Shown: one piece after another, positions 5,058 through 63,451 of the stretch
Position numbering within the stretch: the first letter of the stretch is position 1
Layout of the letters: the number at the start of each line of letters is the position of its first letter
Assembly: GCA_964443495.1 (NCBI GenBank)
Contig: CAYUCS010000001.1
Coordinates: forward strand, 213,496-277,495
Source: an uncultured Gammaproteobacteria bacterium
GTDB taxonomy: Bacteria > Patescibacteriota > Patescibacteriia > Patescibacteriales > GWE2-39-37
Direction: 5' to 3'
Length of the DNA stretch: 64,000 bases
Translations under genes and position numbers: made by a program
Notes under the pieces: model-generated
The model's input: only the letters and a program-made list of their open reading frames with translations
Database searches by the model: none
Told to the model about the DNA's origin: nothing

Positions 5058-5058
5058 T

Positions 5059-8294: not shown

Positions 8295-9054
8295 GTTCCA
8301 AGCTTTCCTTAAGTTTGATCATGATATCCGGAATCAATGTCGGGACTGGCATCTCCTCGGCCTTGACGCGGATAGGGTGTCCTTTGATTTTCTTGTCGAT
8401 CATGGATTTCAGTTCCGATGAGTAGGTATCTTTGAATCTTTTCGGGTCGAACGGGGCGGCAAGCTCGTCGATGAGCATGGAAGCGATCGACAGTTCCTTA
8501 TGGGTAAATTCGTCCTTTTCGGGCAGATCGAGTTCGGCCGGGCTTTTCAATTGGTCGCTGAAGCGCAGCTGGTTAAGCATCAGTAGGTCGTTATCGACGC
8601 TGATTGCCACGAAGTATTCCCGAGTATGCATGACGAACTTGGCCAGACCGGCTTTTTTTGTTTTGCGCAGTGTTTCCCTCAGCAGGGCATAAGTCTTTTT
8701 CGCCCCCTTGTCCGGTTCGATATAATACGGCTTTTCGATGTATTTCCAGTCGATGTCGCCTTTATCGACGAACTCGATAACTTCGATCGTCTGGCTTCTC
8801 TTGACGGCTACCTTCTTAAGATCGTCTTCGTCGATGACGACGAAGCGGCCCTTCTTGAATTGCAGACCGCGGACAATCTCCTTGTAAGGCACTTCCTCGC
8901 CGGTCGTCTCGCAGACCCGCTTATACCTTATCGGGCACATGTCCTTCCGGCTCAGGTAATGAAAATCGAAGCTCTTCTCCTGGCTAGCGCTATAGAGTTT
9001 TATCGGGATGTTGATCAGGCCGAAGCTGATCATTCCTTTCCAGATAGGGTGCAT
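8275..9054 (-). CDS. ku: Ku DNA end-binding protein (NHEJ)
   Basis: Canonical bacterial Ku N-terminus WKGxISFGLxNIPIKLYSA. 259 aa, immediately upstream of ligD. Confidence 0.9.
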   Translation of the reverse strand: MHPIWKGMISFGLINIPIKLYSASQEKSFDFHYLSRKDMCPIRYKRVCETTGEEVPYKEIVRGLQFKKGRFVVIDEDDLKKVAVKRSQTIEVIEFVDKGDIDWKYIEKPYYIEPDKGAKKTYALLRETLRKTKKAGLAKFVMHTREYFVAISVDNDLLMLNQLRFSDQLKSPAELDLPEKDEFTHKELSIASMLIDELAAPFDPKRFKDTYSSELKSMIDKKIKGHPIRVKAEEMPVPTLIPDIMIKLKESLEHAKKHR

Positions 9055-48900: not shown

Positions 48901-51900
48901 TGGAACCTCGATGACCTACATGCTTCCTGATATCGAGCTTTCAGCCGAGTATATGGTGCCACGCAACGCTGCCTATATCGCCGTCGCCTGCGTGCCGAAG
49001 CATGGCACGACCTCATTGAGCATTTATGATCCGAGCAATGTCTTTGTAACCAGCGCTACTTGTACTTCAACGACAAATAATCCAGGTAAGGTCAAATTTG
49101 GCGGCACCGATACCGTTACTTATGCGGCCGGCTCGCGCATCGTCTCGACCAACGGCAAGCCGTTCTATGCTTATTATGAAGATGTCGAACAGGTGGCGGT
49201 GACCGGCACGGGCGGCGACGAGAGCAATTTCCTTGGCGCTACGCAGGCCAGGAAGCAAGCTTCGACTTCTCCGATCATCACTTTGGGTACCGAGCAATCG
49301 AGCAAGATCACGGTTTCGGGCAAGGTTTACAGCGACCAGGGAGCGACGCCGCTCCTGACCCGGCCAGTCGTCCATCTGGTTGTCGGCGGAACCCTCATCT
49401 CATCTACCACTGCCTCCTCGACTGATGGCAGCTTCGTTTTCAATAATGTCACGATGCCGGAAACAGGCTCGAGTACCATCGTCTTTCTGGCCAGCTCGAC
49501 CGTTTCCGGTGTGACTTATGACCGCTATGCTGGTGCGGATAATATTACGGGGCTGGATATTTATCAGAATCACGTAATTGTTCGCAGTGACGCCGCCGGT
49601 TCGATCAGTAACGCTACGGTCGATCGCTACGATGCGGATCAGGACGCCTTCATTAAGGTCGCGGTGATTTCTGACAACCTGTCCGCTTCTTCGACTCAGC
49701 GGCTTTTCGTCTGGCCAGGCAGCACTTATCAGCCCGGAGGGGCGGTGACGCTGCCAGCGGGTGGCGGCGGAATCGGCGGCAGCCTCTATATCGCTACCTC
49801 CTCGATCATGAATGCCGAGGGCAATACGCTTTCGATCGGCGCTGGTTGGACCAATTTGGGCGAGTTCCAGAAGACCGCCGTCCAGTCCACCGTATTTACC
49901 GCCACTTCGACCGGTTTCGTCATCGATAACGCCACTTCGACCTTCAATCACGTCACCTTCAGTGCCAATGGCAGCTGGTCGCTGGCAACTTCGACGACTC
50001 TCGACGGCAACTTGTCCATGGCGACCGGCACCTTGTCGAGCCTTTATGATTTGACGGTCAAGGGCGGTACAGCTTCGGGCACCGGCATCGTCAGCCTGTC
50101 CGGCGGCACCTTTACGCTTCAGGGTTCGGGTGACTTCGGCGGCGCTAACGCCTGGACTTTCTATGATTTGGCTTTCGGCGACGGCGCGACCCCAGCCACG
50201 ACCACCAAGGCTGGCTTCGGTACGACCACTATCGCTAACCAGCTGGTAATCAATGCGAGCCACGTCTTGGATGCCGGCACGTCTGCTTGGATCGTAGGCG
50301 GCTCCGGCACGGCCCTGTCGGGCAGCGGCAGTCTCATCCCCTCATCTTCGCTATTCAGATTCACTGCGACGAGCAGCGTCAGCCTCGCGCCCAAGGATTT
50401 TTACCGCCTCGAGCTCGTGCCGGGGGCTGCGGGTTCGCCGAATTACGCCTTGGGAGCCGGAAGCCTATCGACGGCCGACTACTTGATAATCGGCGACGGC
50501 ACGAATCCGATCACGGTCTCGGCCAGCAATACGGCCCTAGATATAAACGGCGATTTCACCATCAATGCTTCGGCCACTTTTGCTGCGCCGACTTCTTCGA
50601 GCTTCACGGTCGCTGGCAATTGGGAAAATAACGGGACTTTCGATCATTCCGGCGGCACCGTCACGTTCGACGCTGGCAGTGCTGGGAAAATCGTCAACGT
50701 TGGCGGCTCGTCTTTCAGTACGGTGATTTTCAATAACCAGGCCGGCGACTGGACGATCGGCGAAAGCGCTACCTCGACCAGCGACTGGACGTTGGCGGCC
50801 GGAACCTTCATCGCTTCTTCTTCGATTACGATCGAAGTCGATGGGCTGTTCAGCAATCTGATCGGCGGCGCTTCGACCACCTGGGCAGGCACGACGCTCT
50901 ATCTTACGGGCGGAGCCCAGACGATCAGCGCCAGCACGACACCAGCAGAAACCTATGGCTCTTTGATTGTCGGGGCCAATACCGATGTCCGGATGTGGAA
51001 TTCTTCAGCTGCGTCATATTCCGTCGACCCGACTGGCTCGCTTTATTCGATGGATCATGGCAATGCTGACGGCGCTTTGGATATCTGGGGAGATTTCCAT
51101 ATTTCAGCCGGGACGGACGAATGGAGCTATCAGACCGATTTTGATGGCAGCGACCTCGCCGGTTCGCCCAGACAGGTCAACGTGGCCATAATTTCCGGCG
51201 GCACGGTTTCGGTCGATGGCGGCAACTTGAATATGATCGGTTCGTCAAGCCTGCCGACGACTATCGCCAACCAAGGAAGCGGCACTTATGCTTTCAATAT
51301 CAGTTCCGGTACTTTCAATGCTGATTATTACCAAGTCAGCAACGCCGATACTAACGGCCTGAATTTCTCAGGTTCGCCAGCCATCACCTCGTTGAATAAC
51401 GGCGATTTCCAGCTGGCTGGCTCGACCGGACGGGCGATTTCGCTGACGGCCAGCGCGGTTAATGCTAATCCGGGCAAGGTCATCTACGGTTGTAATTTCG
51501 CCACCACCACTGCCATCAGTTCGGCTTTTAACGTCTTTCTCGCGGCCGCGGCCGCCAGCAATTGGACCTTCGCCAACCACACCGGTACTTTCGCTGGCGA
51601 AACTTACGACAGCGATCCGGGCGATCCGACCGGCTATCTCGTCTGGGATGACAGCCCGGTCTATTCGCCGAAGGCCCGCAAATGGCGCTGGTATGACGAC
51701 ACGAACGCGGAAACTCCGGTCGTCCCGTCAGCCAACGAGGGCGTGATGCCGCAGAATATCGTCAACGGCGCCGATTTCAAGCTGCGGCAGTCGATCGATG
51801 CCACGAACATGACAGGGAATAACGTCAAGATGCGCTTGCAATATTCGACCTCGCCGACTTTCGCGAGCGATGTCAATTTCGTCGGGGAAATCGGTTCGAC

Positions 51901-54900
51901 GACGGTCGATTGGACCTATGCCAATGGCGCTGATGCTGACAATGCGGCCGTTTCGACGCTACTCTTATCCGATTCAGCCGCTGCCGCCACCCACAACGAA
52001 TCCGGCACATCGGCCTCGACCTATACCCATACCTTGAACACCGTAGCCGAGTGGGAGTTCACTCTCTTGGCGGCCAGCACCACTCCGGGAACGACCTATT
52101 ATTTCCGGCCGTATTTCAGCAATAAGCCGGTGACACTCGAAGACACGGAGACCCGACCGAGTATCTATGTCGCTGATAACATTTCCGTTTCTGGCACGGT
52201 CTATAGCGATGCTGGCTCGAACCAGCTCTTGAGCGGTCCGGTCGTCGGCTTGGCGATCGGCAATCAGCTGGTCGCGACCACGACCGCCTCGACGATCGAT
52301 GGCAGCTTCATCTTTAATAATATCACCCAGTTCTCGAGCGGCGCCTCGACAGCGATTTTCCTTGATAATTCCGAACTCGAGGCCTCGGGCGGCATCACTT
52401 ATTTCAATTCCACCTCGACCCCGGCCGATAACGGTTCCAGCGCTACCAACCCGACTGTCGTGACCCCTCCGACCAATATGCGAGACGGCGACTTGGTAAT
52501 CCTTGAAGCGGCCCATGGAGCCGGTACCGGCACCTTGTCCATTTCTAGCACTGGCGGCCAAGCCTGGACCGCCTTGACCCAGAGGGTTAATGCCACCAGG
52601 ACGGTTAACTTGTTCTGGGCGCGCTTCAACGGAACTTGGAGCGCCAACCCGAGCGTCAACATGGTCTCGGCGGTCAACAACATCGTCGTGATGCACGTCT
52701 TCCGTCCGGGCTATTCGGGCAGCACTTGGGAGATAGATGTGCCGGAAACGAGCAATACCTATGCCGCCGCTTCACCGGTCACGATTACAGGGATATCTAC
52801 CCAGACTGACGGAGCCCTGGTTTTTGCCGCCTGGACTAGTGCCGATGACAATACTTGGGGTGCGGCAACGGCCGGCTGGTCAACTCCTGGCACTGCCCAA
52901 TATCGCAACACTTCCGGTACGGCCGATCAGTCTATAACTTCCGCGTATCGTGTCATGGCCACGGCCGGACCGACTGGCAATGTTAGTAAGACGCAGACGG
53001 CATTAGGTCCTGATGCCGGCACTCGATACATCATCGCTTTCAAAGAGGTCAAGCCGACCTCGGTCTATGGTGTCGCTTTCAACCGCTATGCCGGTTCGAG
53101 TGATATGGCTAATTATGATATCTACCAAGACCGGGTCATCGTCCGCAACGACGATGCCGGTCCGATCACTAATGCTGACATCAATAATTACGATGCCGAC
53201 CAGAATTCGCAGATCAAAGCCGGCGTCGCTTCAGCGAATCTGACCGTGCCATCAACCCAGATGCTCTACATCTGGCAGAATAGTACTTTCCGGCCAGCTG
53301 GCCAAATCGCGCTCCAATCAGGTGCCGCACCCGCATCGATAGGCGGAGATTTGATAATCAATACCGGCTCTATCTTTAATGCAGAATCGAATGCCGTTTC
53401 CATAGGCGGCGATTGGACCAATCTAGGATCGTTCCAGTCGAATGCTGGCCAGACGGTCTCGTTCACCTCGACTTCGACCGGCTACAGCATCGTTACCGGC
53501 GGTTCCGGCTTCATGAATGTGGCCTTTTCAGGTGTCGGCGGCGGTTGGTCTTTCACCGACCCCGCGACCATCAACGGCGACCTGGATATGGCTACCGGCA
53601 CCTTGTCAGGCACGAATTCCATCTCGGTCAAAGGCGGCGGCGCCACCGGCAACGGCACCATCGATCTGACCGGCGGCACTTTTACGATCGATGGCACCGG
53701 CGATTTCGGCGGCTTCATCGATTGGAATTTTTACGGCCTGGAAATCGGCGACGGCGTCTGGACCGATGCCACCTCCAAGGTCGGCACTAACAATATCCTG
53801 GTCAACGGACCGATGACGATAAACGCCGGCCAAACCTTGAATGCCAGTAGCAGCACCTGGACGCTGGCGGCTAGCGGTACGCCGTTGGCTGTGAGCGGCA
53901 TCCTTAATCCGGAACAATCGACCTTCAGATTCGTTTCAACCGATGACATTAATCTGACTCCGGCAACTTTTTACAATCTTGAATTATCGCCGAACGGTGC
54001 CGGTTCGCCGAGTTACGGTTTCTATGGCGGCACCCTGGCAACTAATAACCTCACTATCGGCGACGGTACGAACCCTGTGACGGTCGCCGCCAACGTCGAT
54101 AACCCGGTCGTCGATGTCAATGGCGACTTCCTGATCCGCAGCAGCGCCATTTTCGTCGCCTCGGCTTTCAGCCCCTTCTACGCCGGCGGCAGCTGGCAGA
54201 ATGACGGCACGTTCTCGAGCAACAACGGCACAGTCGTCTTCGATGCCGGCACGACCGGCAAGACGATCGCTCCGGGCGGCTCGTCTTTTCATGGGGTCGA
54301 ATTCAACGGAGCAGCCGGTGGTTGGACTCTGGGTGCCAACGCCACTTCAACGGACAGCTTCAGCTTGGTGGCCGGCCAGTCCTTCACGCTCTCGTCCGGT
54401 TCGACCTTGGCGATCCTCAACGGCTTCAGCAACGCCTTCAACCAGGCTTCGACCACTTGGACCGGTTCGACCATCCACTTCGCCGGCAGCTCGCGCACGA
54501 TCAACGGCAAGGCCAGCAGCTCTGACGCGTACGGCACCATCAAGGTCGGCGCCAACACCGATATCAGGCTTTGGAACTCCTCGGCCACTTCGTACGACAT
54601 CGACTCAACCGGTTCATTCTATTCGATGGATCATGGCAATATCGACGGCTCGCTCTTCATTTGGGGCGATTATCACGTCGGAGCAGGGCAGACCGAGTAC
54701 TGGAATTGGCAGATCGATTTCGACGGCGCTTCGCTTGCCGGCTCGGAGCGCCAAGCCAACATACGCTTGGCTTCGAGCACGAACGTGACCGTCGATGGCG
54801 GCACGCTGCAGATCTTGGGCACCACGACGGCCAGTTCGACGGTCGATAGCCAGGGTTCAGGCTACTTCGGCTTGGCGGTCAGCAGCGGCACCCTGAATGC

Positions 54901-56281
54901 TGGTTATTATAAGATCAGCAATACCGACACCAACGGCCTCTCACTCTCGAATGCCTCGACCATCACCTCGATCGATAACGGGGAGTATGTTTTGGGAGTC
55001 AACGGCGGTTCCTCGATTACGGTCACGCCGAGCCTTATGGCTGCCAACCCGGCCAAGACGATCAGCGGCTGCAGCTTCGCTTCTTCGACCGGCGTGTTCG
55101 GCTACAACGTCAAGCTGGCCAGCGCGGCAGCGACCGAGTGGACTTTTGTTGGCCTAGCCGGCAACCTGGCTGGCGAGGATTTCGATAGCGATGTCGGCGA
55201 TCCGCGCGGCTATATCATCTGGGATAACAGTCCGACCTATGTGCCTTTATCGCAGAAATGGCAATGGTTCCATGATGAGGACCAGGAGACGCCGCTGGCT
55301 CCGGCTGGCGGGGAAGAGGTGGCACCGTCGGGCATTCCGCGGGGCAACGTCCTCAAGCTGCGGCTCTCGATCAAGGCGACGAACGGTCTGGCAGGAAGCA
55401 ACGTCAAGATGAGGCTGCAGTATTCGACCTTTTCCGATTTTTCCAATAACGTCAATTTCGTGGGCGAAATCGGCTCCTCAACTTCAATCTGGAATTATGG
55501 CGACGGCATCGACGCTGATAATGCGCCGGCCAGTTCGTACTTCCTGTCTGACTCCGATGCCACCTCGACGCATAACGAATCCGGCATCTCGGCCTCGACC
55601 TATGCCCATGGCGCCGATGCGGTCGCCGAGTGGGAATTTACCGTCGCCAATAACGGCGCCGAAGCAGGCACGACCTACTTCTTCCGCGCCTATACTGATC
55701 AGTACGGCGTCCAAGGCGTTGAGCCGAATCTGGGCAATTTTTATCCGAGCCTGACCGCCGGCGATGAGGCATTGGGCACGACCTTGTCCGGACTGCCGAG
55801 CGGTACGGCGACCGAAGGAGTAGTTACTAATATCAATACTGACCAAGTGACGGTACCGTTCGGCAATCTGCCGTTCGGCAGTTCGGTAACCGGCGCTCAT
55901 CGTCTGCTGATCTCGACCAATGGCGAGAGCGGATATCAGCTGTTCGTCAAGCAGAGCCAGGACCTGACTAATGGCCATGGCGTGACGATCAATGCCGTCA
56001 CGGCTGACAACGCCAATCCTCAGGCTTGGCCGATGACGCCTGATCCGGCTGCTTTCGGCTATCACACGAGCGACGACACCCTGTCCGGCGCTTCGCCGTC
56101 GCGTTTCGCTCCGAATAACAGCTACGCCAAGTTCGAGACAGGCATCCAAGAGGTCGGCTACAGTCCGATTCCTGTCTCCAACGATCCGATCGACCTGATC
56201 TATCGCATCGAGGTTTCGGATCAGCAGCAGCCGGGCGACTATGTAACCCAAGTCGAATATATCTTAGTGCCGACATATTGA
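45929..56281 (+). CDS. Giant (3,450 aa) signal-anchored surface protein: acidic spacer, DUF2341-like module, two ~1-kaa super-repeats, C-terminal WxL-like domain
   Basis: Uninterrupted 10,353-nt ORF. TM AVGLFFLLWTVTGLGPV. E/P/A-rich region at ~aa 170-300. DUF2341-type segment WWNGSWPYKLPITIDN...DIRF...IYLYYGN at ~47830-48135. The last 170 aa are homologous to the C-terminus of the 57413..58435 product. Confidence 0.85.
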   Translation: MPKKVKTIISKFKRFFATNQQEVRRSRPVVRVMQDIVPPSVLRISNEVLGIKEYGSNNLKIFGRAWRGAVGLFFLLWTVTGLGPVDVIRKSVAALAGEDIQTVNLYATDCSIETAASSSWQHLEKISGAPDLAADATSSDFTEGNSASYLGGSGNVTCTGFRQAAPAVEIKTEEDAPSVVGVEPAKEAVEIKEEPIAEDIAVVKEDGEQASSSTIVEEEKAEATIEEPIVVIEDAATSGQPSIGIKTEEGESSNDTPASEPSELQTTEPTPEAVEPSVLQETADLIIETVEEVADIVENLIDEIVLMAGAKQGEDSLKNLGRLKGAKINLSLSQNFATSTEKEKADAAEVATSTSFVGVKILYSTDAPGEDSPDSKIWHELVELPETDLSACVEATSSDCLIFRLAEYAQAGYLSFAAPEIESWEDVENIQVKLEGGHNGAADYRLSLDSVWVEASYDDNREELDQDDGYESFDKIFVDGKEINFEFTDDNSDENLIIRSNRKDYYGVTDAVVYFSVTNASAKREAVNLQVHFPEDKGGVAKLEQLRKDIWTETELDGGELPSPNVFKQVFGQEIKRKHVPETMRPKNSTRGGGHLIGPGKTQYYKMRITYPAGTRGEFFIEAVGDGQGYGLLDPWWNGSWPYKLPITIDNTANTSALTDYQVLVEIDSTTAGFWDNVNADGSDIRFLNSAQDTQLNHWTQYFDKTGSSTQIWVQVDSIPAASTSQIYLYYGNGAAASTSDMYTTFSYATMQDLYYVVRGSLTNATVTVVSLIDNNQVQLDNGTATNLNRQQIAKLVPVTQTSVLRAKGPVQASITGVAAGATLVPISYAGTAFVMPLNSGTTESWSRYAPFVRATTTIYNGNTLGNTTAINAGAAATTAYNITTTGRLLSTNPILAAWYATATTYSAAVYPATTRDLYGIRSGTNNIGFTGNTDFSIYCSSGASLNVTGRTTAALYANTTCATVTEGGGNAVRLTGQTNPIGGVVYNDSDGTSMTYMLPDIELSAEYMVPRNAAYIAVACVPKHGTTSLSIYDPSNVFVTSATCTSTTNNPGKVKFGGTDTVTYAAGSRIVSTNGKPFYAYYEDVEQVAVTGTGGDESNFLGATQARKQASTSPIITLGTEQSSKITVSGKVYSDQGATPLLTRPVVHLVVGGTLISSTTASSTDGSFVFNNVTMPETGSSTIVFLASSTVSGVTYDRYAGADNITGLDIYQNHVIVRSDAAGSISNATVDRYDADQDAFIKVAVISDNLSASSTQRLFVWPGSTYQPGGAVTLPAGGGGIGGSLYIATSSIMNAEGNTLSIGAGWTNLGEFQKTAVQSTVFTATSTGFVIDNATSTFNHVTFSANGSWSLATSTTLDGNLSMATGTLSSLYDLTVKGGTASGTGIVSLSGGTFTLQGSGDFGGANAWTFYDLAFGDGATPATTTKAGFGTTTIANQLVINASHVLDAGTSAWIVGGSGTALSGSGSLIPSSSLFRFTATSSVSLAPKDFYRLELVPGAAGSPNYALGAGSLSTADYLIIGDGTNPITVSASNTALDINGDFTINASATFAAPTSSSFTVAGNWENNGTFDHSGGTVTFDAGSAGKIVNVGGSSFSTVIFNNQAGDWTIGESATSTSDWTLAAGTFIASSSITIEVDGLFSNLIGGASTTWAGTTLYLTGGAQTISASTTPAETYGSLIVGANTDVRMWNSSAASYSVDPTGSLYSMDHGNADGALDIWGDFHISAGTDEWSYQTDFDGSDLAGSPRQVNVAIISGGTVSVDGGNLNMIGSSSLPTTIANQGSGTYAFNISSGTFNADYYQVSNADTNGLNFSGSPAITSLNNGDFQLAGSTGRAISLTASAVNANPGKVIYGCNFATTTAISSAFNVFLAAAAASNWTFANHTGTFAGETYDSDPGDPTGYLVWDDSPVYSPKARKWRWYDDTNAETPVVPSANEGVMPQNIVNGADFKLRQSIDATNMTGNNVKMRLQYSTSPTFASDVNFVGEIGSTTVDWTYANGADADNAAVSTLLLSDSAAAATHNESGTSASTYTHTLNTVAEWEFTLLAASTTPGTTYYFRPYFSNKPVTLEDTETRPSIYVADNISVSGTVYSDAGSNQLLSGPVVGLAIGNQLVATTTASTIDGSFIFNNITQFSSGASTAIFLDNSELEASGGITYFNSTSTPADNGSSATNPTVVTPPTNMRDGDLVILEAAHGAGTGTLSISSTGGQAWTALTQRVNATRTVNLFWARFNGTWSANPSVNMVSAVNNIVVMHVFRPGYSGSTWEIDVPETSNTYAAASPVTITGISTQTDGALVFAAWTSADDNTWGAATAGWSTPGTAQYRNTSGTADQSITSAYRVMATAGPTGNVSKTQTALGPDAGTRYIIAFKEVKPTSVYGVAFNRYAGSSDMANYDIYQDRVIVRNDDAGPITNADINNYDADQNSQIKAGVASANLTVPSTQMLYIWQNSTFRPAGQIALQSGAAPASIGGDLIINTGSIFNAESNAVSIGGDWTNLGSFQSNAGQTVSFTSTSTGYSIVTGGSGFMNVAFSGVGGGWSFTDPATINGDLDMATGTLSGTNSISVKGGGATGNGTIDLTGGTFTIDGTGDFGGFIDWNFYGLEIGDGVWTDATSKVGTNNILVNGPMTINAGQTLNASSSTWTLAASGTPLAVSGILNPEQSTFRFVSTDDINLTPATFYNLELSPNGAGSPSYGFYGGTLATNNLTIGDGTNPVTVAANVDNPVVDVNGDFLIRSSAIFVASAFSPFYAGGSWQNDGTFSSNNGTVVFDAGTTGKTIAPGGSSFHGVEFNGAAGGWTLGANATSTDSFSLVAGQSFTLSSGSTLAILNGFSNAFNQASTTWTGSTIHFAGSSRTINGKASSSDAYGTIKVGANTDIRLWNSSATSYDIDSTGSFYSMDHGNIDGSLFIWGDYHVGAGQTEYWNWQIDFDGASLAGSERQANIRLASSTNVTVDGGTLQILGTTTASSTVDSQGSGYFGLAVSSGTLNAGYYKISNTDTNGLSLSNASTITSIDNGEYVLGVNGGSSITVTPSLMAANPAKTISGCSFASSTGVFGYNVKLASAAATEWTFVGLAGNLAGEDFDSDVGDPRGYIIWDNSPTYVPLSQKWQWFHDEDQETPLAPAGGEEVAPSGIPRGNVLKLRLSIKATNGLAGSNVKMRLQYSTFSDFSNNVNFVGEIGSSTSIWNYGDGIDADNAPASSYFLSDSDATSTHNESGISASTYAHGADAVAEWEFTVANNGAEAGTTYFFRAYTDQYGVQGVEPNLGNFYPSLTAGDEALGTTLSGLPSGTATEGVVTNINTDQVTVPFGNLPFGSSVTGAHRLLISTNGESGYQLFVKQSQDLTNGHGVTINAVTADNANPQAWPMTPDPAAFGYHTSDDTLSGASPSRFAPNNSYAKFETGIQEVGYSPIPVSNDPIDLIYRIEVSDQQQPGDYVTQVEYILVPTY
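49305..52176 (+). repeat. Super-repeat copy A of the giant gene (~957 aa)
   Basis: It begins ITVSGKVYSDQGATPLL.. and ends ..TTYYFRPYFSNKPVTLEDTETRPSIYVADN. It is colinear with copy B: YDRYAGADNITGLDIYQNHVIVR / FNRYAGSSDMANYDIYQDRVIVR, and WRWYDD..NVKMRLQYSTS / WQWFHD..NVKMRLQYSTF. Confidence 0.8.
52180..55765 (+). repeat. Super-repeat copy B of the giant gene (~1,195 aa) carrying a ~230-aa insertion (~52380-53060)
   Basis: It begins ISVSGTVYSDAGSNQLL... The insertion (..PPTNMRDGDLVILEAAHGAGTGTLSISSTGGQAWTAL..ALVFAAWTSADDNTW..) has no counterpart in copy A. Confidence 0.8.
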
Positions 56282-57039
56282 TGAAATTTTCAATTTTCAA
56301 TTTTCAATTTTCAATTGGCCAAGGGTTATTGTTGATGTTTTTAGGTATGGTTTTGTCCGGTTGCCAGCTGCCGTTTGCTGACAAGACGCCGGAGCGCCCT
56401 GAGGTGCTGATTGCGCAGGAGTGCGGTATGGACGGCCTCAAATGCTGCTTGACCGAACCGGCTTGTTCTTACGGCCAGAAATGCTGTACCGATCCGGCTG
56501 ATCCGAGCCGCAACCGCTGCGCTGACGAGTGCGGCTGTGGCGGCCAGGAAGAGTTCTGCTGCGTTGACGGGCCCAAGTGCAAGGCCGGGCTGTCGTGTCA
56601 GTCGGGCAATTGCCAGCTGTGCGGCATCGAGGGCAAGGCTTGCTGCACCGGCGATGACGGTAATGTCCTGGCCGACGGTTTGGCTGGCTACAACCCGGCT
56701 TGCCCGGGCAAGGCGGCCAGCTCGACCGCTTTGGCCTGTCAGAATGACACTTGCGTCGCCTGCGGCCTGCCGGGCAATCCTTGCTGCATTGTCGGAGACA
56801 AGTGCATGAGTCCGGCGACAGGCTTGGCCGAGTGCCTGGCTGGCACTTGCCGCCTGTGCGGCGTCAACGGCGAACCGGCCTGCCAAACCGAGCCGCGCTG
56901 CCAGTCAGGCCACTTGCTTAACAACGACGCTTGCCTGCCGTGCGGCCAGGCTAACCAGCCGTGCTGCCAGGATCAGCAAGGCCAGCAAATCTGCGATAGT
57001 AAAAAGAATCTGGTCTGCGAGTTGGGGTTTTGCAAGTAG
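56281..57039 (+). CDS. Cysteine-rich lipoprotein (~37 Cys in 252 aa) with six CxxCGxxGxxCC-type modules
   Basis: The ATG overlaps the giant gene's TGA (TGATG). Signal peptide MKFSIFNFQFSIGQGLLLMFLGMVLSG|C with lipobox LSGC. Modules: ECGMDGLKCC, ECGCGGQEEFCC, CQLCGIEGKACC, CVACGLPGNPCC, CRLCGVNGEPAC, CLPCGQANQPCC. Confidence 0.75.
   Translation: MKFSIFNFQFSIGQGLLLMFLGMVLSGCQLPFADKTPERPEVLIAQECGMDGLKCCLTEPACSYGQKCCTDPADPSRNRCADECGCGGQEEFCCVDGPKCKAGLSCQSGNCQLCGIEGKACCTGDDGNVLADGLAGYNPACPGKAASSTALACQNDTCVACGLPGNPCCIVGDKCMSPATGLAECLAGTCRLCGVNGEPACQTEPRCQSGHLLNNDACLPCGQANQPCCQDQQGQQICDSKKNLVCELGFCK
56285..56316 (+). repeat. Heptanucleotide tandem repeat (AATTTTC)x4.6 inside the lipoprotein signal-peptide codons
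   Basis: Units at 56285-91, 56292-98, 56299-305 and 56306-312, plus a partial aatt. The unit length is not divisible by 3. Confidence 0.85.
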
Positions 57040-57232: not shown

Positions 57233-57412
57233 AAATTTAATAACTATATTTTCATTCCCAATTCGCCGAAGTCGGAATAATTAATCTTAACATTTGTCGC
57301 GTTTGCCCCAGGTCCAATGGGGTTAAGGTCGAAAAACCCGGTAAATGTTATACGGACAAGGGCGAAGACGGAAAAAAGCACACGCTTATTAAACAATAAA
57401 AATATCATCCCC

Positions 57413-58435
57413 ATGCAAAAATTAAGAAAAATCGTAGCCTTCATGGCCATCGTCTCGTTGGTGGCTGTCAACGGCTTCGTTTCAACGGCAAATGCCGCAT
57501 CAATAACAAACGCCAGTGATCGCTTAAGCGATTCTGATGTTAGTGTTTCCGCAACGCATACCATTACATTTACAACAACGGTTCCTACTCCGACCAATGG
57601 ATATTTTCAGGTTGTGATTCCGGCTGCTTTTGGCAACATGGTTTCCCCAACTTGTCCTGGTGGCATGACTGCCTCAGTTATTGACACTGAAACGTCAAGA
57701 TGTATTTCTACCGCAGGCACAGCCTCGGGAACGTACACCATAGTGCTCACTGGTATTGCTAACCCAGCATCAGTTGGTAGTCAGATTATAAACTTAACCA
57801 ACAAGGATAATAGTAATAATCTGTTAGAATCTGCTACAATGATGGTTGCTATAGTTGATAATATTGACGTATCCGCCACCGTTGCCGCCACTTTGACTTT
57901 TGAAATCCGCCCTCTGGCTACTACGACCCCGATCAACGGCGCCACCACTACCGCTGCTTCGGCCACGACTTCGTTGGCCTTCGGCACGCTGCAGGTCGGC
58001 ACCTCGTCGATCATGGGCCAGGAACTTCGCGTAACTACCAACGCCGATAGCGGTTACACGGTGACCGTCGAACAGGATTCCAACCTGACCAGCGCTGGCG
58101 GCTCCGATATTGACGCTTTCGCCAACGGCGCCACCTCCACTCCTGCCGCTTGGGCAGCTCCGGCCGGTACCCTTGATTCAGAGGCTACCTATGGCCACTT
58201 CGGTTTGACGACCGATGATGCTACTGGCGGCGGCACCCAGGACTTTACCTCAAGCAAGTGGCGCGGTCTCGATAATAACGTCCCAGTGGCCGTGATGTAC
58301 CACAACGGCCCGGCTGACGGCTCGACCCAGGACAAGGGTATGGCCAAGGTCGCTTACCGCATCCAGATCTCGGCACTGCAAGAAGCCGGTGATTACACCA
58401 GTGTTCTGACCTACATCGCCACCCCAGTTTACTAA
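57413..58435 (+). CDS. Secreted protein: N-terminal Ig-like domain plus a C-terminal WxL-like domain (Tyr replaces Trp)
   Basis: ATG 57413 gives signal peptide MQKLRKIVAFMAIVSLVAVNGFVSTANA; the track start at 57317 has no support. The C-terminal ~190 aa align with the giant's C-terminus: FG.L..G.S, TN..SGY...V.Q, FG..T.DD, YRI..S..Q.GDY.....YI..P.Y. Confidence 0.8.
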   Translation: MQKLRKIVAFMAIVSLVAVNGFVSTANAASITNASDRLSDSDVSVSATHTITFTTTVPTPTNGYFQVVIPAAFGNMVSPTCPGGMTASVIDTETSRCISTAGTASGTYTIVLTGIANPASVGSQIINLTNKDNSNNLLESATMMVAIVDNIDVSATVAATLTFEIRPLATTTPINGATTTAASATTSLAFGTLQVGTSSIMGQELRVTTNADSGYTVTVEQDSNLTSAGGSDIDAFANGATSTPAAWAAPAGTLDSEATYGHFGLTTDDATGGGTQDFTSSKWRGLDNNVPVAVMYHNGPADGSTQDKGMAKVAYRIQISALQEAGDYTSVLTYIATPVY

Positions 58436-58458
58436 ACGAAAACAGTCCGTACATAAAA

Positions 58459-58487
58459 AGAGGCGCCTAGCATGGGGCGCCTCTTTT
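58459..58487 (+). terminator. Rho-independent terminator after the WxL-like gene
   Basis: agaggcgcc/ggcgcctct 9-bp stem, 8-nt loop, TTTT. Confidence 0.8.
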
Positions 58488-58534: not shown

Positions 58535-58563
58535 TTGTCAAAGGACGTAAAAATTGCTATAAT
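58535..58563 (+). promoter_or_regulatory. Promoter of the three-paralog operon (TTGTCA - 17 nt - TGCTATAAT)
   Basis: -35 at 58535-58540 and extended -10 at 58555-58563. Confidence 0.65.
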
Positions 58564-58647: not shown

Positions 58648-59772
58648 ATGAAGAAAACGAGCATTCTTGGCCGCTTGGCCGGCCTGATATCATTGGCGTC
58701 ATTGGTCATCATGACTATGGCCATGCCGCAGAAAACTTTGGCGGCCGAAGCCATTATGTTGAGCCCGTCGCGGGTGGAAGAATTGGTTTCGCCAGGGCAG
58801 GTGATAACCAAGACCATCAAGGTGACTAACAATTCGGAGTCACCGAAGAAAATCTACGCCTATCTGCGTGATTTCACCGCCGAGGGCGAGGAGGGCAAGC
58901 CTCGCTTGATCGTCCCGGGTACGGAACAGGGTTCATTCTTGTCATCTTGGATCGCGATCACTTCCGAGGGTGTGGATATTTCCGCGGGAGGCGATGCGGA
59001 GTTCGCTTACACCGTGACCGTGCCGCAGAATGCCGGCCCGGGCGGCTATTACGGCGCCATCATATTCGGCACCCGGGCGCCTGACGTCAAGATCGACTCG
59101 GTTGAAAAAGGCGCGGCTATCGGCGTGGCCCAGCAGGCCGGCTCACTGATTCTCTTGCAGATTCCTGGCGATGCCAACGAGACCGCGTCAATTCGCGATT
59201 TCATCACCGACAAGGAGTTTTACAGTACGCCCTTCAACGTCAATTTTACAGCCAGGATTCAGAACCAGGGCAATGTCCACATCAAGCCGCGCGGCACGAT
59301 TGAAATCACCAACATGCTTGGCAACAAAGTCGCTAACGTCCGGGTCAACGATACCGGTTCGAACATTCTGCCTAACAGTACTCGACGCTACGAGATGCCA
59401 TGGAGCGGTGATTTCGGCTTCGGCAAGTACAAGGCCCAGCTAGCCTTGACCTATGGCACATCGGCTGAGCAGGGAGGTAACGGCATGCAATCGCTGACCT
59501 CGATCAAATATTTCTGGATTTTCCCGTGGAAGATTATCGGCATCGTCGTTTCGAGTATCGCTTTCGTCATCGCCGCCATCTTTGTCTTCCTGAAGATTTA
59601 CAAGAACAAGGCGATCGAGAGCGCCATGAGTGAGATGGGGGTCGGCAGCGAATACTACGTCAAGAAGACTCAAGGCGGCTCGCCGGCTTTGCATCTTGGG
59701 CTGACCCTGGCGATACTTTTGGCGGTCGTCTTCCTGCTGGCAGCCGTGACTTATTTCCTGTTCTTCGCCTAA
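58648..59772 (+). CDS. DUF916/DUF3324-like cell-surface protein, paralog 1 (signal peptide, two beta-sandwich domains, C-terminal TM anchors)
   Basis: PGQVITKTIKVTNNSESPKKIYAYLRDF...SWIAI.....ISAGG.AEF.YTV.VPQNAGPGGYYGAIIF, then ...IQNQGNVHIKPRGTIEITN..G..V.....N..G..ILPNSTRRYE..W....GFGKYKA.L.L.YG, then FWIFPW + TM + KIYKNK. Confidence 0.75.
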   Translation: MKKTSILGRLAGLISLASLVIMTMAMPQKTLAAEAIMLSPSRVEELVSPGQVITKTIKVTNNSESPKKIYAYLRDFTAEGEEGKPRLIVPGTEQGSFLSSWIAITSEGVDISAGGDAEFAYTVTVPQNAGPGGYYGAIIFGTRAPDVKIDSVEKGAAIGVAQQAGSLILLQIPGDANETASIRDFITDKEFYSTPFNVNFTARIQNQGNVHIKPRGTIEITNMLGNKVANVRVNDTGSNILPNSTRRYEMPWSGDFGFGKYKAQLALTYGTSAEQGGNGMQSLTSIKYFWIFPWKIIGIVVSSIAFVIAAIFVFLKIYKNKAIESAMSEMGVGSEYYVKKTQGGSPALHLGLTLAILLAVVFLLAAVTYFLFFA

Positions 59773-59793
59773 TCAAAAAAGCAAACGGTAATA

Positions 59794-60777
59794 ATGAAAA
59801 ATTCCGGAAAAATATCCTTGTCTTTAGCGCTGGCCCTGATGATCGGCTGGCATGGCATCGGCACTGCCCAGGCGCAGACCATAGCCGCCGACGTGACGAT
59901 AACGCCGAGCATCATCGATGAGCAGGCGGAGGCCAAGGAAATCATCGAACGCACAGTCAAATTGAAGAATAATACCGCCGCCAAACTCGAACTCTATCCC
60001 ACGGTCAATGACGTCAAGCAGGACGAGGGTAAACAGGAGTTCGTCGATCCGAGCAACCTGGATCGCGCCACTTCGCTGGCCCGTTGGATCGAGATCCGGC
60101 GCGGAGTCGTCGAACTGAATCCTGGACAGGAAGTAGAGCTGCCGCTGAAGATCACTGTCAATATGAACGCCACGCCGGGCAAGTATTTCGCCGCCATCAC
60201 CTTTCCCAACGGTTCCAATCGTTCCGAGGCCGAAGCGCAAGGCGGCCAGCCGCAGATGATGATCAGTATCGAGGTGAGGGAGCATGCGGTCGAGAAAGCG
60301 GAAAATTTCGTCTTTTCGACGGAGAAATCGGTGAATTTCAACAATCAGGTCAAGTTCCTGATCGGGTTGAAGAATATCGGCAACAAGGAGATTTACCCCA
60401 AGGGATCGGTCATCATCTATGATCGGCGAGAGCGGGAGGTCGAGGTCATTGACGTGAATTATAACCAGCAGATCGTCAAGCCGGGCGAGAACCCGCAGTT
60501 CGAGCCGACCTGGTCGGCCGGCAAGCGGATGGGCAAGTTCAAAGCCAAGCTGGAGGTCGAATACGGCAAGTCAGGCGACCGCAACATCCAGGACACTATC
60601 TATTTCTGGATCCTGCCTTGGTGGCTCCTGGCCATGATCTGCCTCTTGGTCCTGCTGCTGATCACAAGCGTTTGGCTCCTTTACGCCCGCATCAAGCACC
60701 ACAGCCGCATCATCCAGTCAGCCCAGGAAGAAGCGAAATCACCGATAATAAATTTAAAAAATAGGCCAAGGCATTAA
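59794..60777 (+). CDS. DUF916/DUF3324-like cell-surface protein, paralog 2
   Basis: Same architecture: KLKNNTAAKLELYP, ARWIEI, TPGKYFAAITF, LKNIGNKEIYPKGSVIIYD, KPGENPQFEPTWS, MGKFKAKLEVEYG, FWILPWW + TM + RIKHH. Confidence 0.75.
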   Translation: MKNSGKISLSLALALMIGWHGIGTAQAQTIAADVTITPSIIDEQAEAKEIIERTVKLKNNTAAKLELYPTVNDVKQDEGKQEFVDPSNLDRATSLARWIEIRRGVVELNPGQEVELPLKITVNMNATPGKYFAAITFPNGSNRSEAEAQGGQPQMMISIEVREHAVEKAENFVFSTEKSVNFNNQVKFLIGLKNIGNKEIYPKGSVIIYDRREREVEVIDVNYNQQIVKPGENPQFEPTWSAGKRMGKFKAKLEVEYGKSGDRNIQDTIYFWILPWWLLAMICLLVLLLITSVWLLYARIKHHSRIIQSAQEEAKSPIINLKNRPRH

Positions 60778-60782
60778 TAATT

Positions 60783-62519
60783 ATGAAACCCAGTCCTAAG
60801 ACAAAAATAATCGTTTCACTGGCTTTGGCCGCGATTTTCAGCGGCTTTTTAGGCGGTCAGGCGTCTGCCCAGCAGGACAGCTCGATGATACTTTCCATCA
60901 CGCCGCCGCTCTTCAAGGTGAATATGAAGCCGGGCGAGACTTGGTCCAGCGTGGTCAAAGTCGTGAATAATAACGCTTATCCCGTTACCGTCTATACGCA
61001 GGTGGCTGATTTCAAGTCCGGTGAGGCTGGCGGAGTGGAGTTCGTCAAGAGCGAACCGGACGCCGCCGGCAAGGGCTACACCTTGAGCCAGTGGCTGGAA
61101 ATAACTTCCGAGCCGGTAGAAATCAGCGCTTTTGGCAGCAAGGATGTGCCTTTCAAGGTCATGCTGCCGCAGACCGCCGATCCGGGAGGACATTATGCCG
61201 CCATCTTGGTCGGCAACAAGCCGATCGACAACACCACGGGCAGCGTGGTCAAGATATCTTCCAAGCTGGCTTCGCTGCTTTTGGTGCGAGTGGCTGGCGA
61301 AGTGGTGGAAAAAGGCGACGTACGCGAATTCTCGACCAGCAAGGACTTCGCCAAGAAGACCGAGGCTGATTTCACGGTCCGTTTCGTCAACAAGGGCAAT
61401 GTTCATCTGCGGCCAGAGGGCGAGGTCAAGATTACCAACATGTTCGGCCAGACCCGCGGCGTGATTTCGATCAACAAGAAATCTGAATTCGGCAATGTCC
61501 TGCCAGAAAGCGAGAAGAAATGGGAGTTCAACTGGAAGGGTGAGAGTAGCATCTGGGACGCCGGGCGCATGCAGGCCGAACTTTTCTTGAGCTACGGCGA
61601 AGAAGGCAAGCAATCCGAAGTCCGGAAAATAAATTTCTGGGTGGTCAATCTCAAGCCGACCTTGATCGTCCTTGGCAGCCTGCTGCTTGTCGTTTTACTG
61701 TTCATTTTCTTCGTCAGGCGCTTCATCAAGAAGAGCATCAGCAAGGCTAGGATGGAGGCTGATGCATTGGCCGGGCGATTGGGGCGCACGGCGCCGGCCG
61801 TCGAGCGGCCAACTGCGTCCGTCAAGGCGCCGGCCGGCAAGATGGATGGCGTGGTCGTCAATCTGCGTGATGCTGGTTCTAATTCTAATAATTTAAATAA
61901 TAAAACAACCAAACTTATGAACTGGAGTTTCTTAAAGAATGTTCTGCTCTTTATCGTCGTCGCCTTAATCGTGGTAGCCGGCGCCTTCTTCTACAGTCAG
62001 TACAAGAAGAACTCGTCAGGCAGCGCCACTGAGGACAATGCGCCCAAGAGCACTGGCGTGACAGTGATCAATAACGGCGCCACTTCATCCGCCCAGGCCG
62101 TCGAGACGGTCGATGAGACAGCTACGACGACCGCCACTTCGACCGAGGCTGTCGCCACTTCTACGGATGCTATGGCCACTTCGACCGAGGCTGTCGCCAC
62201 TTCGACTGCCACTACCACGGCTGAGGCTTTGCCTAATGCTTTAGACAAAAAGGATGTCAAGCTTAACATACTGAACGGCAGCGGCGTGACCGGGGTGAGC
62301 GGCAAGGCCGCCAAGATCATTGAGGATGCCGGCTATGTCGTGGCCTCGAAGGGTAATGCGGCTAACTTCAACTTCGCTGTGACTGAAATTACTTACGGTC
62401 CGGATGTTGCAGACAATGCGCTGGCCATCGACCAGCTTGTTGGCGGCGATAGCAAATTGACCGAAGACCCGGCTGCTAGCGGCAAGATAACCGTCACTCT
62501 GGGTAAGAATTTCAAATAA
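60783..62519 (+). CDS. DUF916/DUF3324-like cell-surface protein, paralog 3, extended by a second TM, a Thr/Ala/Ser-rich linker and a C-terminal LytR_C-like domain
   Basis: PGETWSSVVKVVNNNAYPVTVYTQVADF, SQWLEI, DPGGHYAAILVG, FVNKGNVHLRPEGEVKITN, LPESEKKWEFNW, FWVVNL + TM. The C-terminus VKLNILNGSGVTGVSGKAAKIIEDAGYVV...ITVTLGKNF matches the LytR_C pattern. Confidence 0.75.
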   Translation: MKPSPKTKIIVSLALAAIFSGFLGGQASAQQDSSMILSITPPLFKVNMKPGETWSSVVKVVNNNAYPVTVYTQVADFKSGEAGGVEFVKSEPDAAGKGYTLSQWLEITSEPVEISAFGSKDVPFKVMLPQTADPGGHYAAILVGNKPIDNTTGSVVKISSKLASLLLVRVAGEVVEKGDVREFSTSKDFAKKTEADFTVRFVNKGNVHLRPEGEVKITNMFGQTRGVISINKKSEFGNVLPESEKKWEFNWKGESSIWDAGRMQAELFLSYGEEGKQSEVRKINFWVVNLKPTLIVLGSLLLVVLLFIFFVRRFIKKSISKARMEADALAGRLGRTAPAVERPTASVKAPAGKMDGVVVNLRDAGSNSNNLNNKTTKLMNWSFLKNVLLFIVVALIVVAGAFFYSQYKKNSSGSATEDNAPKSTGVTVINNGATSSAQAVETVDETATTTATSTEAVATSTDAMATSTEAVATSTATTTAEALPNALDKKDVKLNILNGSGVTGVSGKAAKIIEDAGYVVASKGNAANFNFAVTEITYGPDVADNALAIDQLVGGDSKLTEDPAASGKITVTLGKNFK

Positions 62520-62602: not shown

Positions 62603-63451
62603 ATGGACCGGACAATCAACTTAAAATCGAAGCAGCGTTCGTCCTGGCTAGGCACCAGGGAGATTGTCGTGGTCATCTCGTCGATAGTCTTGACCACTGT
62701 GGGCATCAAAGCGGCTGATAATTTCATGAATACCGGCGGCGAACAGGGAAGCGGTGCCTGTCCTGCGGACATGGTCCAGGTCTTGTCATCCGGCGGCAGT
62801 TTCTGCATCGATAAGTACGAGTCATCAGCCGGTCCGGATTGCCCTCACGCCAGCCCAACGACCCAAGCCGAGACCAGAAATAATTTGGATAACGTCAATT
62901 GCCGGGCGGTGTCGGCCAAGGGCGCCTTGCCTTGGCGCAATATTTCCCAGAACCAAGCCGCTTCGGCCTGCGCCAAAGCGGGCAAGCGCCTGCCGACCAA
63001 CAAGGAGTGGTTCCAGGCCGCCATGGGCACGCCTGATCCGGAGACCGGCTGGGGGGCTGACGATTGCAATGTCAGCAAAAATTGGGGCAGCCAGCCCGGA
63101 CAGACCGGCTCGGGCGGCAAGTGCGTTTCAGCGGCCGGTGCCAGCGATATGGTCGGCAATGTCTGGGAGTGGGTCCAGGGCACTATCTATAACGGCGAAT
63201 ACGAGAACAGGGCTCTGCCTAAACAGGGCTATGTCGCCGCCATGGATGAGAATTCTTTGCCGAGCGAAACGGCCGAGTCGGCCGACCCGAATTATGATGA
63301 GGATTATCTTTATATCAAGAACAGCGGCACGCGTGGCATCGCTCGCGGCGGCTACTGGGACAACAAGATGGAAGCGGGCGTCAATTCCGCTTATATGGTC
63401 TCTTCACCTTCGTTCGCCGGCGATGGCATCGGCTTCCGTTGCGTGAAGTGA
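62603..63451 (+). CDS. Membrane-anchored FGE-sulfatase (SUMF1/formylglycine-generating-enzyme-like) domain protein
   Basis: TM IVVVISSIVLTTVGI. Motifs FCIDKYE, ALPWRNISQNQAASACAKAGKRLPTNKEW, DMVGNVWEWV, RGGYW, GIGFRCV. Confidence 0.8.
   Translation: MDRTINLKSKQRSSWLGTREIVVVISSIVLTTVGIKAADNFMNTGGEQGSGACPADMVQVLSSGGSFCIDKYESSAGPDCPHASPTTQAETRNNLDNVNCRAVSAKGALPWRNISQNQAASACAKAGKRLPTNKEWFQAAMGTPDPETGWGADDCNVSKNWGSQPGQTGSGGKCVSAAGASDMVGNVWEWVQGTIYNGEYENRALPKQGYVAAMDENSLPSETAESADPNYDEDYLYIKNSGTRGIARGGYWDNKMEAGVNSAYMVSSPSFAGDGIGFRCVK

Follow-up and report, generated by a model that had tools for sequence, protein, structure and literature searches.

Large cysteine-rich extracellular proteins have been reported from Peregrinibacteria, members of the Candidate Phyla Radiation (CPR), and were proposed to serve in rigidity or attachment (PMC4736985). 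The Pam filaments of Candidatus Mycosynbacter amalyticus, described in 2026 from cryo-electron microscopy, consist of two-domain PamA/B pilins with a donated linker strand; they are served by the transmembrane-anchored PapD-like chaperones PamC/D, a tip subunit without the linker strand (PamT) and a transmembrane-anchored terminator (PamR), and no lipoprotein or Cys-rich component is part of that description (bioRxiv 10.64898/2026.03.03.709456). In cone snails, conotoxin Cys framework XXXII was established with the structure of Mo3964, whose disulfides are 1-3, 2-5 and 4-6 (PMC9741281). Here we compare with these systems a single gene of a Candidatus Falkowbacteria genome (CPR/Patescibacteria), located in a 64,000-nucleotide (nt) stretch of contig CAYUCS010000001.1 that we refer to as the window. 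The gene encodes a 252-residue Cys-rich lipoprotein and follows directly on a gene for a giant secreted protein of 3450 residues (Table 1). The protein is of a kind already known, an exported Cys-rich CPR surface protein; what is new is the defined repeat family of which it is made. Like the Peregrinibacteria proteins, it is exported and rich in Cys, whereas those proteins average about 1650 residues, are not lipoproteins and weakly resemble myxococcal repeats, and the window protein is a short lipoprotein built from a different, defined module (PMC4736985).

The lipoprotein is a genuine, conserved gene, and its conservation goes far beyond chance. An initial annotation, made by reading the DNA without database searches, had described an ATGA overlap with the stop codon of the giant gene, a signal peptide ending in the lipobox L-S-G-C, a Cys content of about 15% and about 36 further Cys arranged in six modules. 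The sequence confirms each of these readings: the TGA of the 3450-residue open reading frame (ORF) occupies 56279-56281 and the lipoprotein ATG occupies 56281-56283, with one shared base, and 37 of the 252 residues are Cys (14.7%, or 16.4% of the mature part), 36 of them following Cys28. To guard against circularity, we searched for the modules with a hidden Markov model (HMM) built from non-CPR proteins only, with no sequence from the window. This HMM recovered all six, with matches at residues 46-68, 84-112, 111-125 plus 141-160, 158-191, 190-211 and 218-251. Module 1 contains eight Cys, module 5 contains four, and modules 2, 3, 4 and 6 contain six each, for a sum of 36; the full CxxCG..CC string is present in only three of the six.

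The module is not confined to this protein. When 1.84 billion representatives were searched exhaustively with a profile, 400 proteins matched at E<1e-3, among them about 47 clusters with the same architecture, which are lipoproteins of approximately 230 residues from Candidatus Falkowbacteria/Parcubacteria. Beyond this lipoprotein family, the search identified long secreted proteins in which the module is repeated 5-19 times in tandem. Sources of these arrays include Polyangiaceae/Myxococcales metagenome-assembled genomes (MAGs) of the Myxococcota, a Micrarchaeia archaeon (DPANN) and the green alga Ulva mutabilis, and some of the arrays are fused to subtilase (S8 protease), VWA or RCC1 domains. 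Exactly six Cys were present in 601 of 612 extracted modules. The repeat is about 30 residues long, with the dominant spacing C-x6-CC-x4-5-C-x5-6-C-x4-C (6,0,4-5,5-6,4) and the consensus CxxCGxxGxxCCxGxxCxxGxxCxxGxC.

Searching a database of 5.8 billion proteins with the lipoprotein itself gave 23 homologue clusters of 202-265 residues, mostly from Candidatus Falkowbacteria and named simply "hypothetical protein", and we found no literature on the family. The 90%-identity cluster that the window lipoprotein shares with a close relative, P0173, contains a Candidatus Falkowbacteria entry. Across 44 aligned members, 30 of the 37 Cys columns do not vary, and the conserved positions other than Cys are mostly Gly, Pro, Leu and Asn. 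Conservation and model quality are highest in modules 1, 5 and 6, and module 3 is missing from some homologues. Several MAGs that carry the family (records L013, L015 and L018) bear the title "uncultured Gammaproteobacteria", and Elusimicrobiales is given as the source of one protein; the gene content of these loci is CPR-like, and the labels probably reflect mis-binned or mislabelled records.

Existing annotation resources do not capture the module. Pfam-A returned zero families for the window lipoprotein at E<=10, including hevein, EGF and myxococcal repeats; NCBIfam gave no real match, and a search of PDB sequences with the whole lipoprotein gave none. This bears out the initial view that the Cys pattern is not that of hevein, EGF or the myxococcal repeat. 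The same was true for the repeat of the long-array relatives, which matched no real Pfam family at E<=10 in eight proteins and no NCBIfam model in the two tested, and a 197-residue myxobacterial array, used as query against the 5.8-billion-protein database, retrieved solely entries named "hypothetical protein". We excluded by profile search hevein (carbohydrate-binding module family 18, CBM18), CBM1, EGF, the Myxococcus Cys-rich repeat (TIGR02232), Dickkopf and other named Cys-rich families. A lectin or carbohydrate-binding reading, prompted by the CG..G..C motif, likewise had no profile match, and the mature protein has no Trp, five aromatic residues and a single His. By its sequence, then, the module is an unannotated repeat family, for which neither Pfam nor NCBIfam holds a model. 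It resembles knottins, hevein, CBM1, EGF and TIGR02232 in being a small extracellular module of six to eight Cys that appears to be based on a beta-hairpin.

An AlphaFold2 model made with the family alignment (pLDDT, the predicted local distance difference test, of 79) comprises a signal-peptide helix, a low-confidence tether at residues 29-47 and one beta-hairpin per module. The whole model had no significant global match when compared with the PDB by Foldseek, and matches to EGF-like/Pvs25, VWF and uromodulin structures were discarded as meaningless at template-modelling (TM) scores of 0.1-0.16. The best local match was conotoxin Mo3964 (2MW7), with a probability of 0.90, a TM score (target) of 0.65, a root-mean-square deviation of 1.5 A and an identity of 32% across the 34 matched residues; the match is very short, and its E-value is 0.85. 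A sequence comparison pointed to the same protein: when the module profile was run against 177,635 PDB sequences, Mo3964 was the sole significant match (E=5.9e-4), with all six Cys aligned. The module shares with the framework XXXII conotoxins (Mo3964 of Conus monile, Lv32.1 and Qc32.1) the arrangement C-x6-CC-xn-C-xn-C-xn-C and the flanking CG..(Q/E)PCC. It differs in setting, since Mo3964 is a single 37-residue secreted venom peptide that acts on ion channels, and the lipoprotein has six modules in tandem and a bacterial lipid anchor. The likeness may reflect either homology or convergence. Under the former, the framework XXXII toxins of cone snails may be single-copy relatives of an ancient cross-kingdom repeat.

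The match in both sequence and fold to a toxin, together with low-probability local Foldseek matches to spider inhibitor cystine knot toxins, raises the question of whether the lipoprotein is itself a toxin-like or inhibitor-like array, directed at channels, proteases or other surface proteins of a host cell where epibiont and host are in contact. CPR bacteria are typically epibionts, and a consensus scan suggests that the gene is co-expressed with attachment organelles. Set against this are the company that the module keeps elsewhere, in arrays beside enzymes and VWA or RCC1 domains in free-living bacteria and algae, as is typical of structural repeats; the tethering of the protein by lipid to its producer; a module that is not a cystine knot; and the lack of any signal of diversifying selection, with Gly, Pro, Leu and Asn predominating among the conserved residues other than Cys. 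We regard a toxin-like role as very unlikely.

The disulfide connectivity was examined indirectly, through the joint loss of Cys among homologues. In module 2, C86 and C94 (Cys1 and Cys3) are both present in 26 and both absent from 18 of the 44 members, and neither is ever found singly. C114 and C122, the equivalent pair of module 3, are both present in 37 members and both absent from two, again with no single loss. Cys2 and Cys5 are both naturally missing from module 5. In the superfamily as a whole, these two were lost jointly 19 times and Cys1 and Cys3 approximately 35 times, compared with 3-4 single losses. Because Cys1 is lost with Cys3 and Cys2 with Cys5, these would be the bonded pairs, which leaves Cys4 to pair with Cys6; the pattern supports the connectivity 1-3, 2-5, 4-6, as in Mo3964. 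Lv32.1, also of framework XXXII, is connected differently (1-3, 2-6, 4-5). The inhibitor cystine knot arrangement (1-4, 2-5, 3-6) is incompatible with the joint loss of Cys1 and Cys3. With the inferred pairing, the 36 Cys of the mature lipoprotein should form 18 disulfides. The neighbouring pilin also bears a nearly invariant Cys pair, which makes extracellular disulfides plausible in this organism.

The same losses bear on whether the protein might instead bind metal, an option that the initial annotation had left standing. In such a protein, the CxxCG motifs would act as rubredoxin-like or zinc-ribbon-like knuckles, or the whole as a metallothionein-like sink for copper or zinc. Its Cys content of 15% and the position of CxxCG at the module junctions are in keeping with that idea, and the window contains genes for a Cu-ATPase and a multicopper-oxidase-like protein (2769..5057 and 32375..36562). 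However, Cys are lost along the 1-3 and 2-5 pairs and not along CxxC, and the Cys that precedes a lost Cys1 stays; this pairwise loss argues against the zinc-knuckle (Cys4/metallothionein) reading of CxxCG, which we rejected. In addition, 245 modules in other proteins have no preceding Cys at all, the number of Cys is even in every module, the mature protein is exported and has one His, and the solved relative Mo3964 is fully disulfide-bonded. The copper genes lie more than 20 kb away in other transcription units. Metal binding or redox activity thus seems extremely improbable.

The N-terminus of the protein, MKFSIFNFQFSIGQGLLLMFLGMVLSGC, has a basic, Lys-containing n-region and a long hydrophobic h-region followed by L-S-G-C. 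Written as MK-FSIFNFQFSIGQGLLLMFLGMV-LSGC, it agrees with the lipobox pattern [LVI][ASTVI][GAS]C placed after an n- and h-region. The lipobox Cys is kept in 40 of 43 aligned homologues, lipobox variants occur in nearly all family loci, and Cys28 is the predicted lipidated residue. No lgt or lspA gene was seen among the ORFs scanned within the 64-kb window. A public gene call for the protein (P0001) begins at Met19 and leaves a signal peptide of nine residues. We prefer the start at 56281, because homologues have signal peptides of 17-30 residues and because the contig of P0001 is broken inside the repeat at the 5' end of the gene.

This repeat, a heptamer in the first codons (Table 1), is a further property of the gene. 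Adding or removing one or two heptamer units would truncate the ORF to 15-35 residues, and a change of three units stays in frame. An independent Logan assembly of the same organism (L032) stops exactly within the repeat, and P0173 has a different N-terminus with no heptamer repeat. The tract is a candidate for a slipped-strand on/off (contingency) switch, although 4-5 copies are a modest number.

We next consider how closely the lipoprotein is tied to the giant gene. Looking up eight homologues and scanning GTDB species genomes as well as metagenomes yielded 21 distinct lipoprotein loci. Nine of these, including the window, have what we call context A: the giant gene, the lipoprotein gene, one or two pilin genes, two or three chaperone-like genes and a formylglycine-generating-enzyme-like (FGE-like) gene, in that order. 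Ten loci, from diverse Parcubacteria/Falkowbacteria MAGs, have context B, in which the lipoprotein gene is followed by genes for a 75-residue protein with two transmembrane segments and a multipass membrane protein of about 550 residues, with no giant gene; examples are L001 (11046..13729), L007, L014, L016, L017 and L019-L022. Two loci show neither arrangement. Context A forms one clade nested in a context-B grade in a neighbour-joining tree, which was built without support values. For the first seven context-A loci, the distance from the giant stop codon to the lipoprotein start is -1, 3, 15, approximately 40, 84, 161 and 313 nt. Coupling at the level of codons is therefore not conserved, being tight in three of the seven loci and absent in four.

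The view from the giant gene is similar. When the giant C-terminus was used as query in the metagenome scan, it retrieved 23 loci (about 21 distinct), and the lipoprotein was present in just 5-6. Giant operons that lack it run from the giant gene, often through an ORF of 68-71 residues that is MerR-like, to pilins and chaperones, and in these approximately 21 distinct loci no other Cys-rich lipoprotein substitutes for it. The MerR-like helix-turn-helix ORF (…KKYRLKDI…DRDKTT.IRWE.EG.IP…) adjoins the pilin gene on its upstream side at L039 8059..8283, L044 7440..7664, L053 2778..2987, L057 8624..8833 and L058 3445..3693. None of three sampled pilin loci carries the lipoprotein. Because the gene is present at just 5-6 of about 21 giant loci and none of three pilin loci, and occurs at 10 context-B loci, we conclude that it is a lineage-specific accessory and not a core part of the pilus. 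It is an optional passenger of the operon, not an obligatory partner of the giant gene, and does not behave as a conserved component of the operon. The initial annotation had coupled the lipoprotein to the giant gene and had named conservation beside homologous giant genes as a finding on which its interpretation would stand or fall. The outcome is divided: the ATGA overlap in the window and the gene order in nine loci stand, whereas 10 loci place the lipoprotein elsewhere and most of the approximately 21 giants are without it.

Context B suggests a different partnership, in which the lipoprotein family would have its ancestral and principal role in the envelope with the 75-residue and ~550-residue proteins, its neighbours in most lineages. 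It might, for example, stabilise or plug a transporter-like complex or serve it as an extracytoplasmic sensor, and its place in a pilus operon in this clade would be incidental. The order of the three genes is kept in all 10 context-B loci, and these loci make up the basal grade of the tree. Neither partner has a recognisable family (there was no Pfam match to either), however, and both are absent from the 64-kb window. The three genes are also parted by gaps of 0.1-0.8 kb, sometimes with an extra gene between them, and gene order alone suggests the link. This explanation is unlikely.

The reading that we favour is that of an autonomous accessory of the cell surface. In it, the lipoprotein would be exported by the Sec pathway of the Falkowbacteria cell, cleaved behind its signal peptide and lipidated at Cys28, as the lipobox implies. 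A flexible tether of about 19 residues would then hold the chain of six modules to the outside of the cytoplasmic membrane of this monoderm-type cell. Each canonical module would be a beta-hairpin locked by its three disulfides (Cys1-3, Cys2-5 and Cys4-6), and the 18 disulfides would make of the chain a roughly rod-like stalk, resistant to proteases and denaturation and perhaps long enough to traverse the cell wall. Elsewhere, in the tandem arrays of secreted multidomain proteins, the module would act as an extracellular spacer or binding module. We suggest a stalk or spacer because of this use in tandem arrays, because modules 1, 5 and 6 stand out in conservation and model quality, and because the pilin has its own Cys pair. 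The gene would have been inserted between those of the giant tip adhesin and the major pilin and be co-transcribed with both, and its product would most likely act at the surface alongside the pilus, as an optional, autonomous surface or attachment module. That the protein has the structure proposed here is highly probable. That it functions as an autonomous accessory is a tentative suggestion, at slightly less than an even chance. Taken as a whole, a lipid-tethered, disulfide-rigidified surface rod that is autonomous and was recruited into a pilus operon is on balance probable.

Several observations weigh against this reading. No DsbA-type or VKOR-type gene was found among the approximately 30 window ORFs scanned, a search that covers the 64-kb window only. 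Lipidation, the formation of disulfides and exposure at the surface are predictions, and the tree that nests context A within context B has no support values. The absence of Trp and the presence of just five aromatic residues in the mature protein leave lectin-like binding without specific support. Finally, the gene lies directly behind the giant in nine of nine context-A loci, with overlapping or nearly overlapping codons in three of the first seven, and such strict placement could reflect a specific functional pairing within that clade.

The features of the locus are collected in Table 1.

Table 1. Features of the lipoprotein gene and its neighbourhood (window coordinates)
Feature	Position	Strand	Basis
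Gene for 3450-aa (amino acid) secreted giant protein; DUF2341; C-terminal ~165 aa homologous to pilin C-terminal domain	45929..56281	+	PF10102 E=8.7e-17, BLASTP, alignment
TGATG, giant-gene stop overlapping lipoprotein start (ATGA)	56279..56283	+	Direct sequence reading
Cys-rich lipoprotein coding sequence, 252 aa + stop	56281..57039	+	ORF listing, translation, homologues with invariant Cys
Predicted lipoprotein signal peptide, aa 1-28; lipobox L-S-G-C, aa 25-28 (56353..56364)	56281..56364	+	Sequence, conservation
Perfect (AATTTTC) x4.6 repeat, codons 2-12	56285..56316	+	TRF score 64, 100% matches
Putative flexible tether, aa 29-47, ending in conserved EVL-x-AQ-E	56365..56421	+	pLDDT 48-64; motif kept in both genomic contexts
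Module 1, aa 48-84, 8 Cys (canonical module + one extra Cys pair)	56422..56532	+	HMM; all 8 Cys invariant
Module 2, aa 86-111, canonical C-x6-CC-x5-C-x5-C-x4-C	56536..56613	+	Best module match, 22.6 bits
Module 3, aa 114-158, 6 Cys, low-confidence ~16-aa insert (aa 126-140)	56620..56754	+	HMM, model
Module 4, aa 161-190, 6 Cys	56761..56850	+	HMM, 17.7 bits
Module 5, aa 193-218, 4-Cys variant without Cys2 and Cys5, conserved HLLNN	56857..56934	+	HMM, alignment
Module 6, aa 221-251, 6 Cys, conserved end L-x-C-E-L-G-F-C	56941..57033	+	pLDDT 89-95, highest; HMM
Pilin-like gene, 372-aa ORF, probable start Met33 at 57413	57317..58435	+	NF058581, AlphaFold2 model, homologues
Intrinsic-terminator-like hairpin, 13 bp, 7 GC	58456..58487	+	Consensus scan only
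Promoter-like site TTGTCA-17-TATAAT with TG (extended -10), 11/12 matches, before chaperone-like genes	58535..58563	+	Consensus scan only
Three paralogous chaperone-like genes, 374, 327 and 578 aa, two beta-domains each	58648..62519	+	WxLIP_PGBD/HBD, LytR_C, paralogy
FGE-sulfatase-like gene, operon end	62603..63451	+	PF03781 E=1.5e-16; kept in L003, L004, L005, L012

The initial annotation had spoken of giant DUF2341/WxL-like genes. Matches to NF058581 (CPR_Pam_pilin_C) make a Pam-type pilus operon a better description of the neighbours than a DUF2341/WxL adhesin cluster: the profile aligns to the giant C-terminus over positions 4-148 of 148 (E=4e-6, 27 bits) and to the pilin over positions 3-148 of 148 (E=1.9e-6, 28 bits), in both cases below the curated cut-off of 55. 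The AlphaFold2 model of the pilin (pLDDT 89) consists of two Ig-like beta-sandwiches joined by the conserved strand VAIVDNIDVSATVA, which by alignment is absent from the giant protein. Foldseek related this model to two-domain Ig-like/MSCRAMM-type adhesins, as well as to CfaE and CsuE, tip subunits of chaperone-usher systems; the PDB copy used contained no Pam entry. The pilin family comprises more than 347 clusters in the database in which the lipoprotein has 23. Lacking the linker strand and carrying an N-terminal part of 3285 residues that includes DUF2341, the giant is inferred to be an acceptor-only subunit, the tip adhesin. It exceeds its full-length orthologues (2367 and 2493 residues) by 950-1450 residues, with two other orthologues cut by contig ends, and BLAST reveals an internal duplication, in which residues ~1174-2062 and ~2359-3250 align to the same region of the orthologues.

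The remaining genes fit the same description. The 374- and 327-residue chaperone-like proteins have C-terminal transmembrane helices, and the 578-residue protein adds a mucin-like linker and LytR_C. These chaperone-like proteins agree with what is described for PamC/PamD (bioRxiv 10.64898/2026.03.03.709456), and the operon contains no usher-like gene. Matches to WxLIP_PGBD/HBD (DUF916/DUF3324) are weak on the two shorter proteins and above the Pfam gathering cut-off on the 578-residue ORF. A 21-bp tandem repeat (3.6 copies, 81% matches, 62132..62206) lies in the Thr/Ala-rich linker of the latter. The FGE-sulfatase-like gene at the end of the operon could have a role in modifying pilus proteins. 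In the consensus scan, there was no terminator-like site between the giant, lipoprotein and pilin genes, the first being at 58456, which suggests that these three genes form one transcription unit, set apart from the chaperone-like genes by the strong hairpin and the near-consensus promoter-like site. The neighbourhood is best described as a Pam-type (CPR donor-strand-exchange) pilus operon, known here from its genes and from profile scores that fall below the cut-off. It resembles Pam in its pilins with an NF058581-type C-terminus and linker strand, its acceptor-only giant and its chaperones with C-terminal transmembrane helices, and it differs in its lineage, which is Falkowbacteria and not Saccharimonadia or Microgenomatia, and in its 3450-residue tip protein.

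Given such an operon, the lipoprotein might be a dedicated anchor or platform, by which either the giant tip adhesin or the Pam-type pilus at its base would be docked to the membrane. This might happen by donation of the conserved N-terminal strand EVLIAQ into an open pilin-type C-terminal groove, as in the PamR or PapH terminators. The Pam model requires a membrane-tethered terminator (bioRxiv 10.64898/2026.03.03.709456), and the lipoprotein offers a conserved motif of alternating hydrophobic residues in the disordered tether immediately behind its lipid anchor. Its constant position behind the giant in context A, with an ATGA overlap or a spacing of 3 nt or 15 nt in three loci, and its probable co-transcription with the tip adhesin and pilin (from the consensus scan) point the same way. 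On the other hand, the operon already encodes three transmembrane-anchored chaperone/PamR-like proteins, and about 15 of 21 homologous giant operons have neither this gene nor an analogous Cys-rich lipoprotein at that place. Pilus genes are not adjacent in 10 of the 21 family loci, where the EVL-x-AQ motif is equally conserved, and the motif spans only about six residues, unlike the pilin linker strand VAIVDNVDVSATVA. An anchoring role is accordingly unlikely, and the earlier proposal of a membrane-proximal receptor or platform is weakly supported, having in its favour the gene order of nine loci in one clade, set against 10 loci with no giant and the lipoprotein's presence at 5-6 of about 21 giants. 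The fuller version, in which the lipoprotein would be a new pilus component, a disulfide-rigid and lipid-anchored base that tethers a giant-tipped pilus by strand donation and is switched by slippage of the 7-bp repeat, is more doubtful still. We therefore retain the accessory surface rod as the preferred interpretation.

The operon also recalls the WxL/Csc clusters of Firmicutes in the order of its genes: a large surface protein, a small anchored protein, a small "pilin-like" protein and DUF916-type proteins with a C-terminal transmembrane segment (PMC10599100). We rejected a WxL domain on the pilin or the giant C-terminus, as Pfam WxL had no match to either at E<=10. The lipoprotein presumably stands where those clusters have CscD, a small wall-anchored protein, which we offer as a lead only. 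CscD has an LPXTG anchor and is not Cys-rich, whereas the window protein is lipid-anchored and Cys-rich. The WxLIP_PGBD match of the chaperone-like proteins suggests that WxL surface clusters and CPR Pam pili are evolutionarily related, a relation that is absent from the Pam preprint (bioRxiv 10.64898/2026.03.03.709456).

Elsewhere in the window, the regions 2769..9054 and 28721..36562 encode a Cu-type P-ATPase, LigD and Ku (non-homologous end joining), a 1217-residue Big_2/Big_5 protein and a 1395-residue multicopper-oxidase-like protein. The last two add to the large surface proteins of this small CPR genome.

These results overturn no current view, and their advances are at the level of annotation. 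The Pam-type operon, first described in 2026 in Saccharimonadia, appears to extend to Falkowbacteria, where it has a 3450-residue tip protein and lineage-specific accessories, and a candidate phase-variable surface gene has been flagged in a CPR genome. The module itself is now defined as a compact, testable domain of about 30 residues with three predicted disulfides and hundreds of occurrences across bacteria, DPANN archaea and algae, for which PDB 2MW7 is the sole structural handle. CPR bacteria, which account for much of bacterial diversity, live in attachment to other cells, yet hardly any of their surface proteins are annotated.

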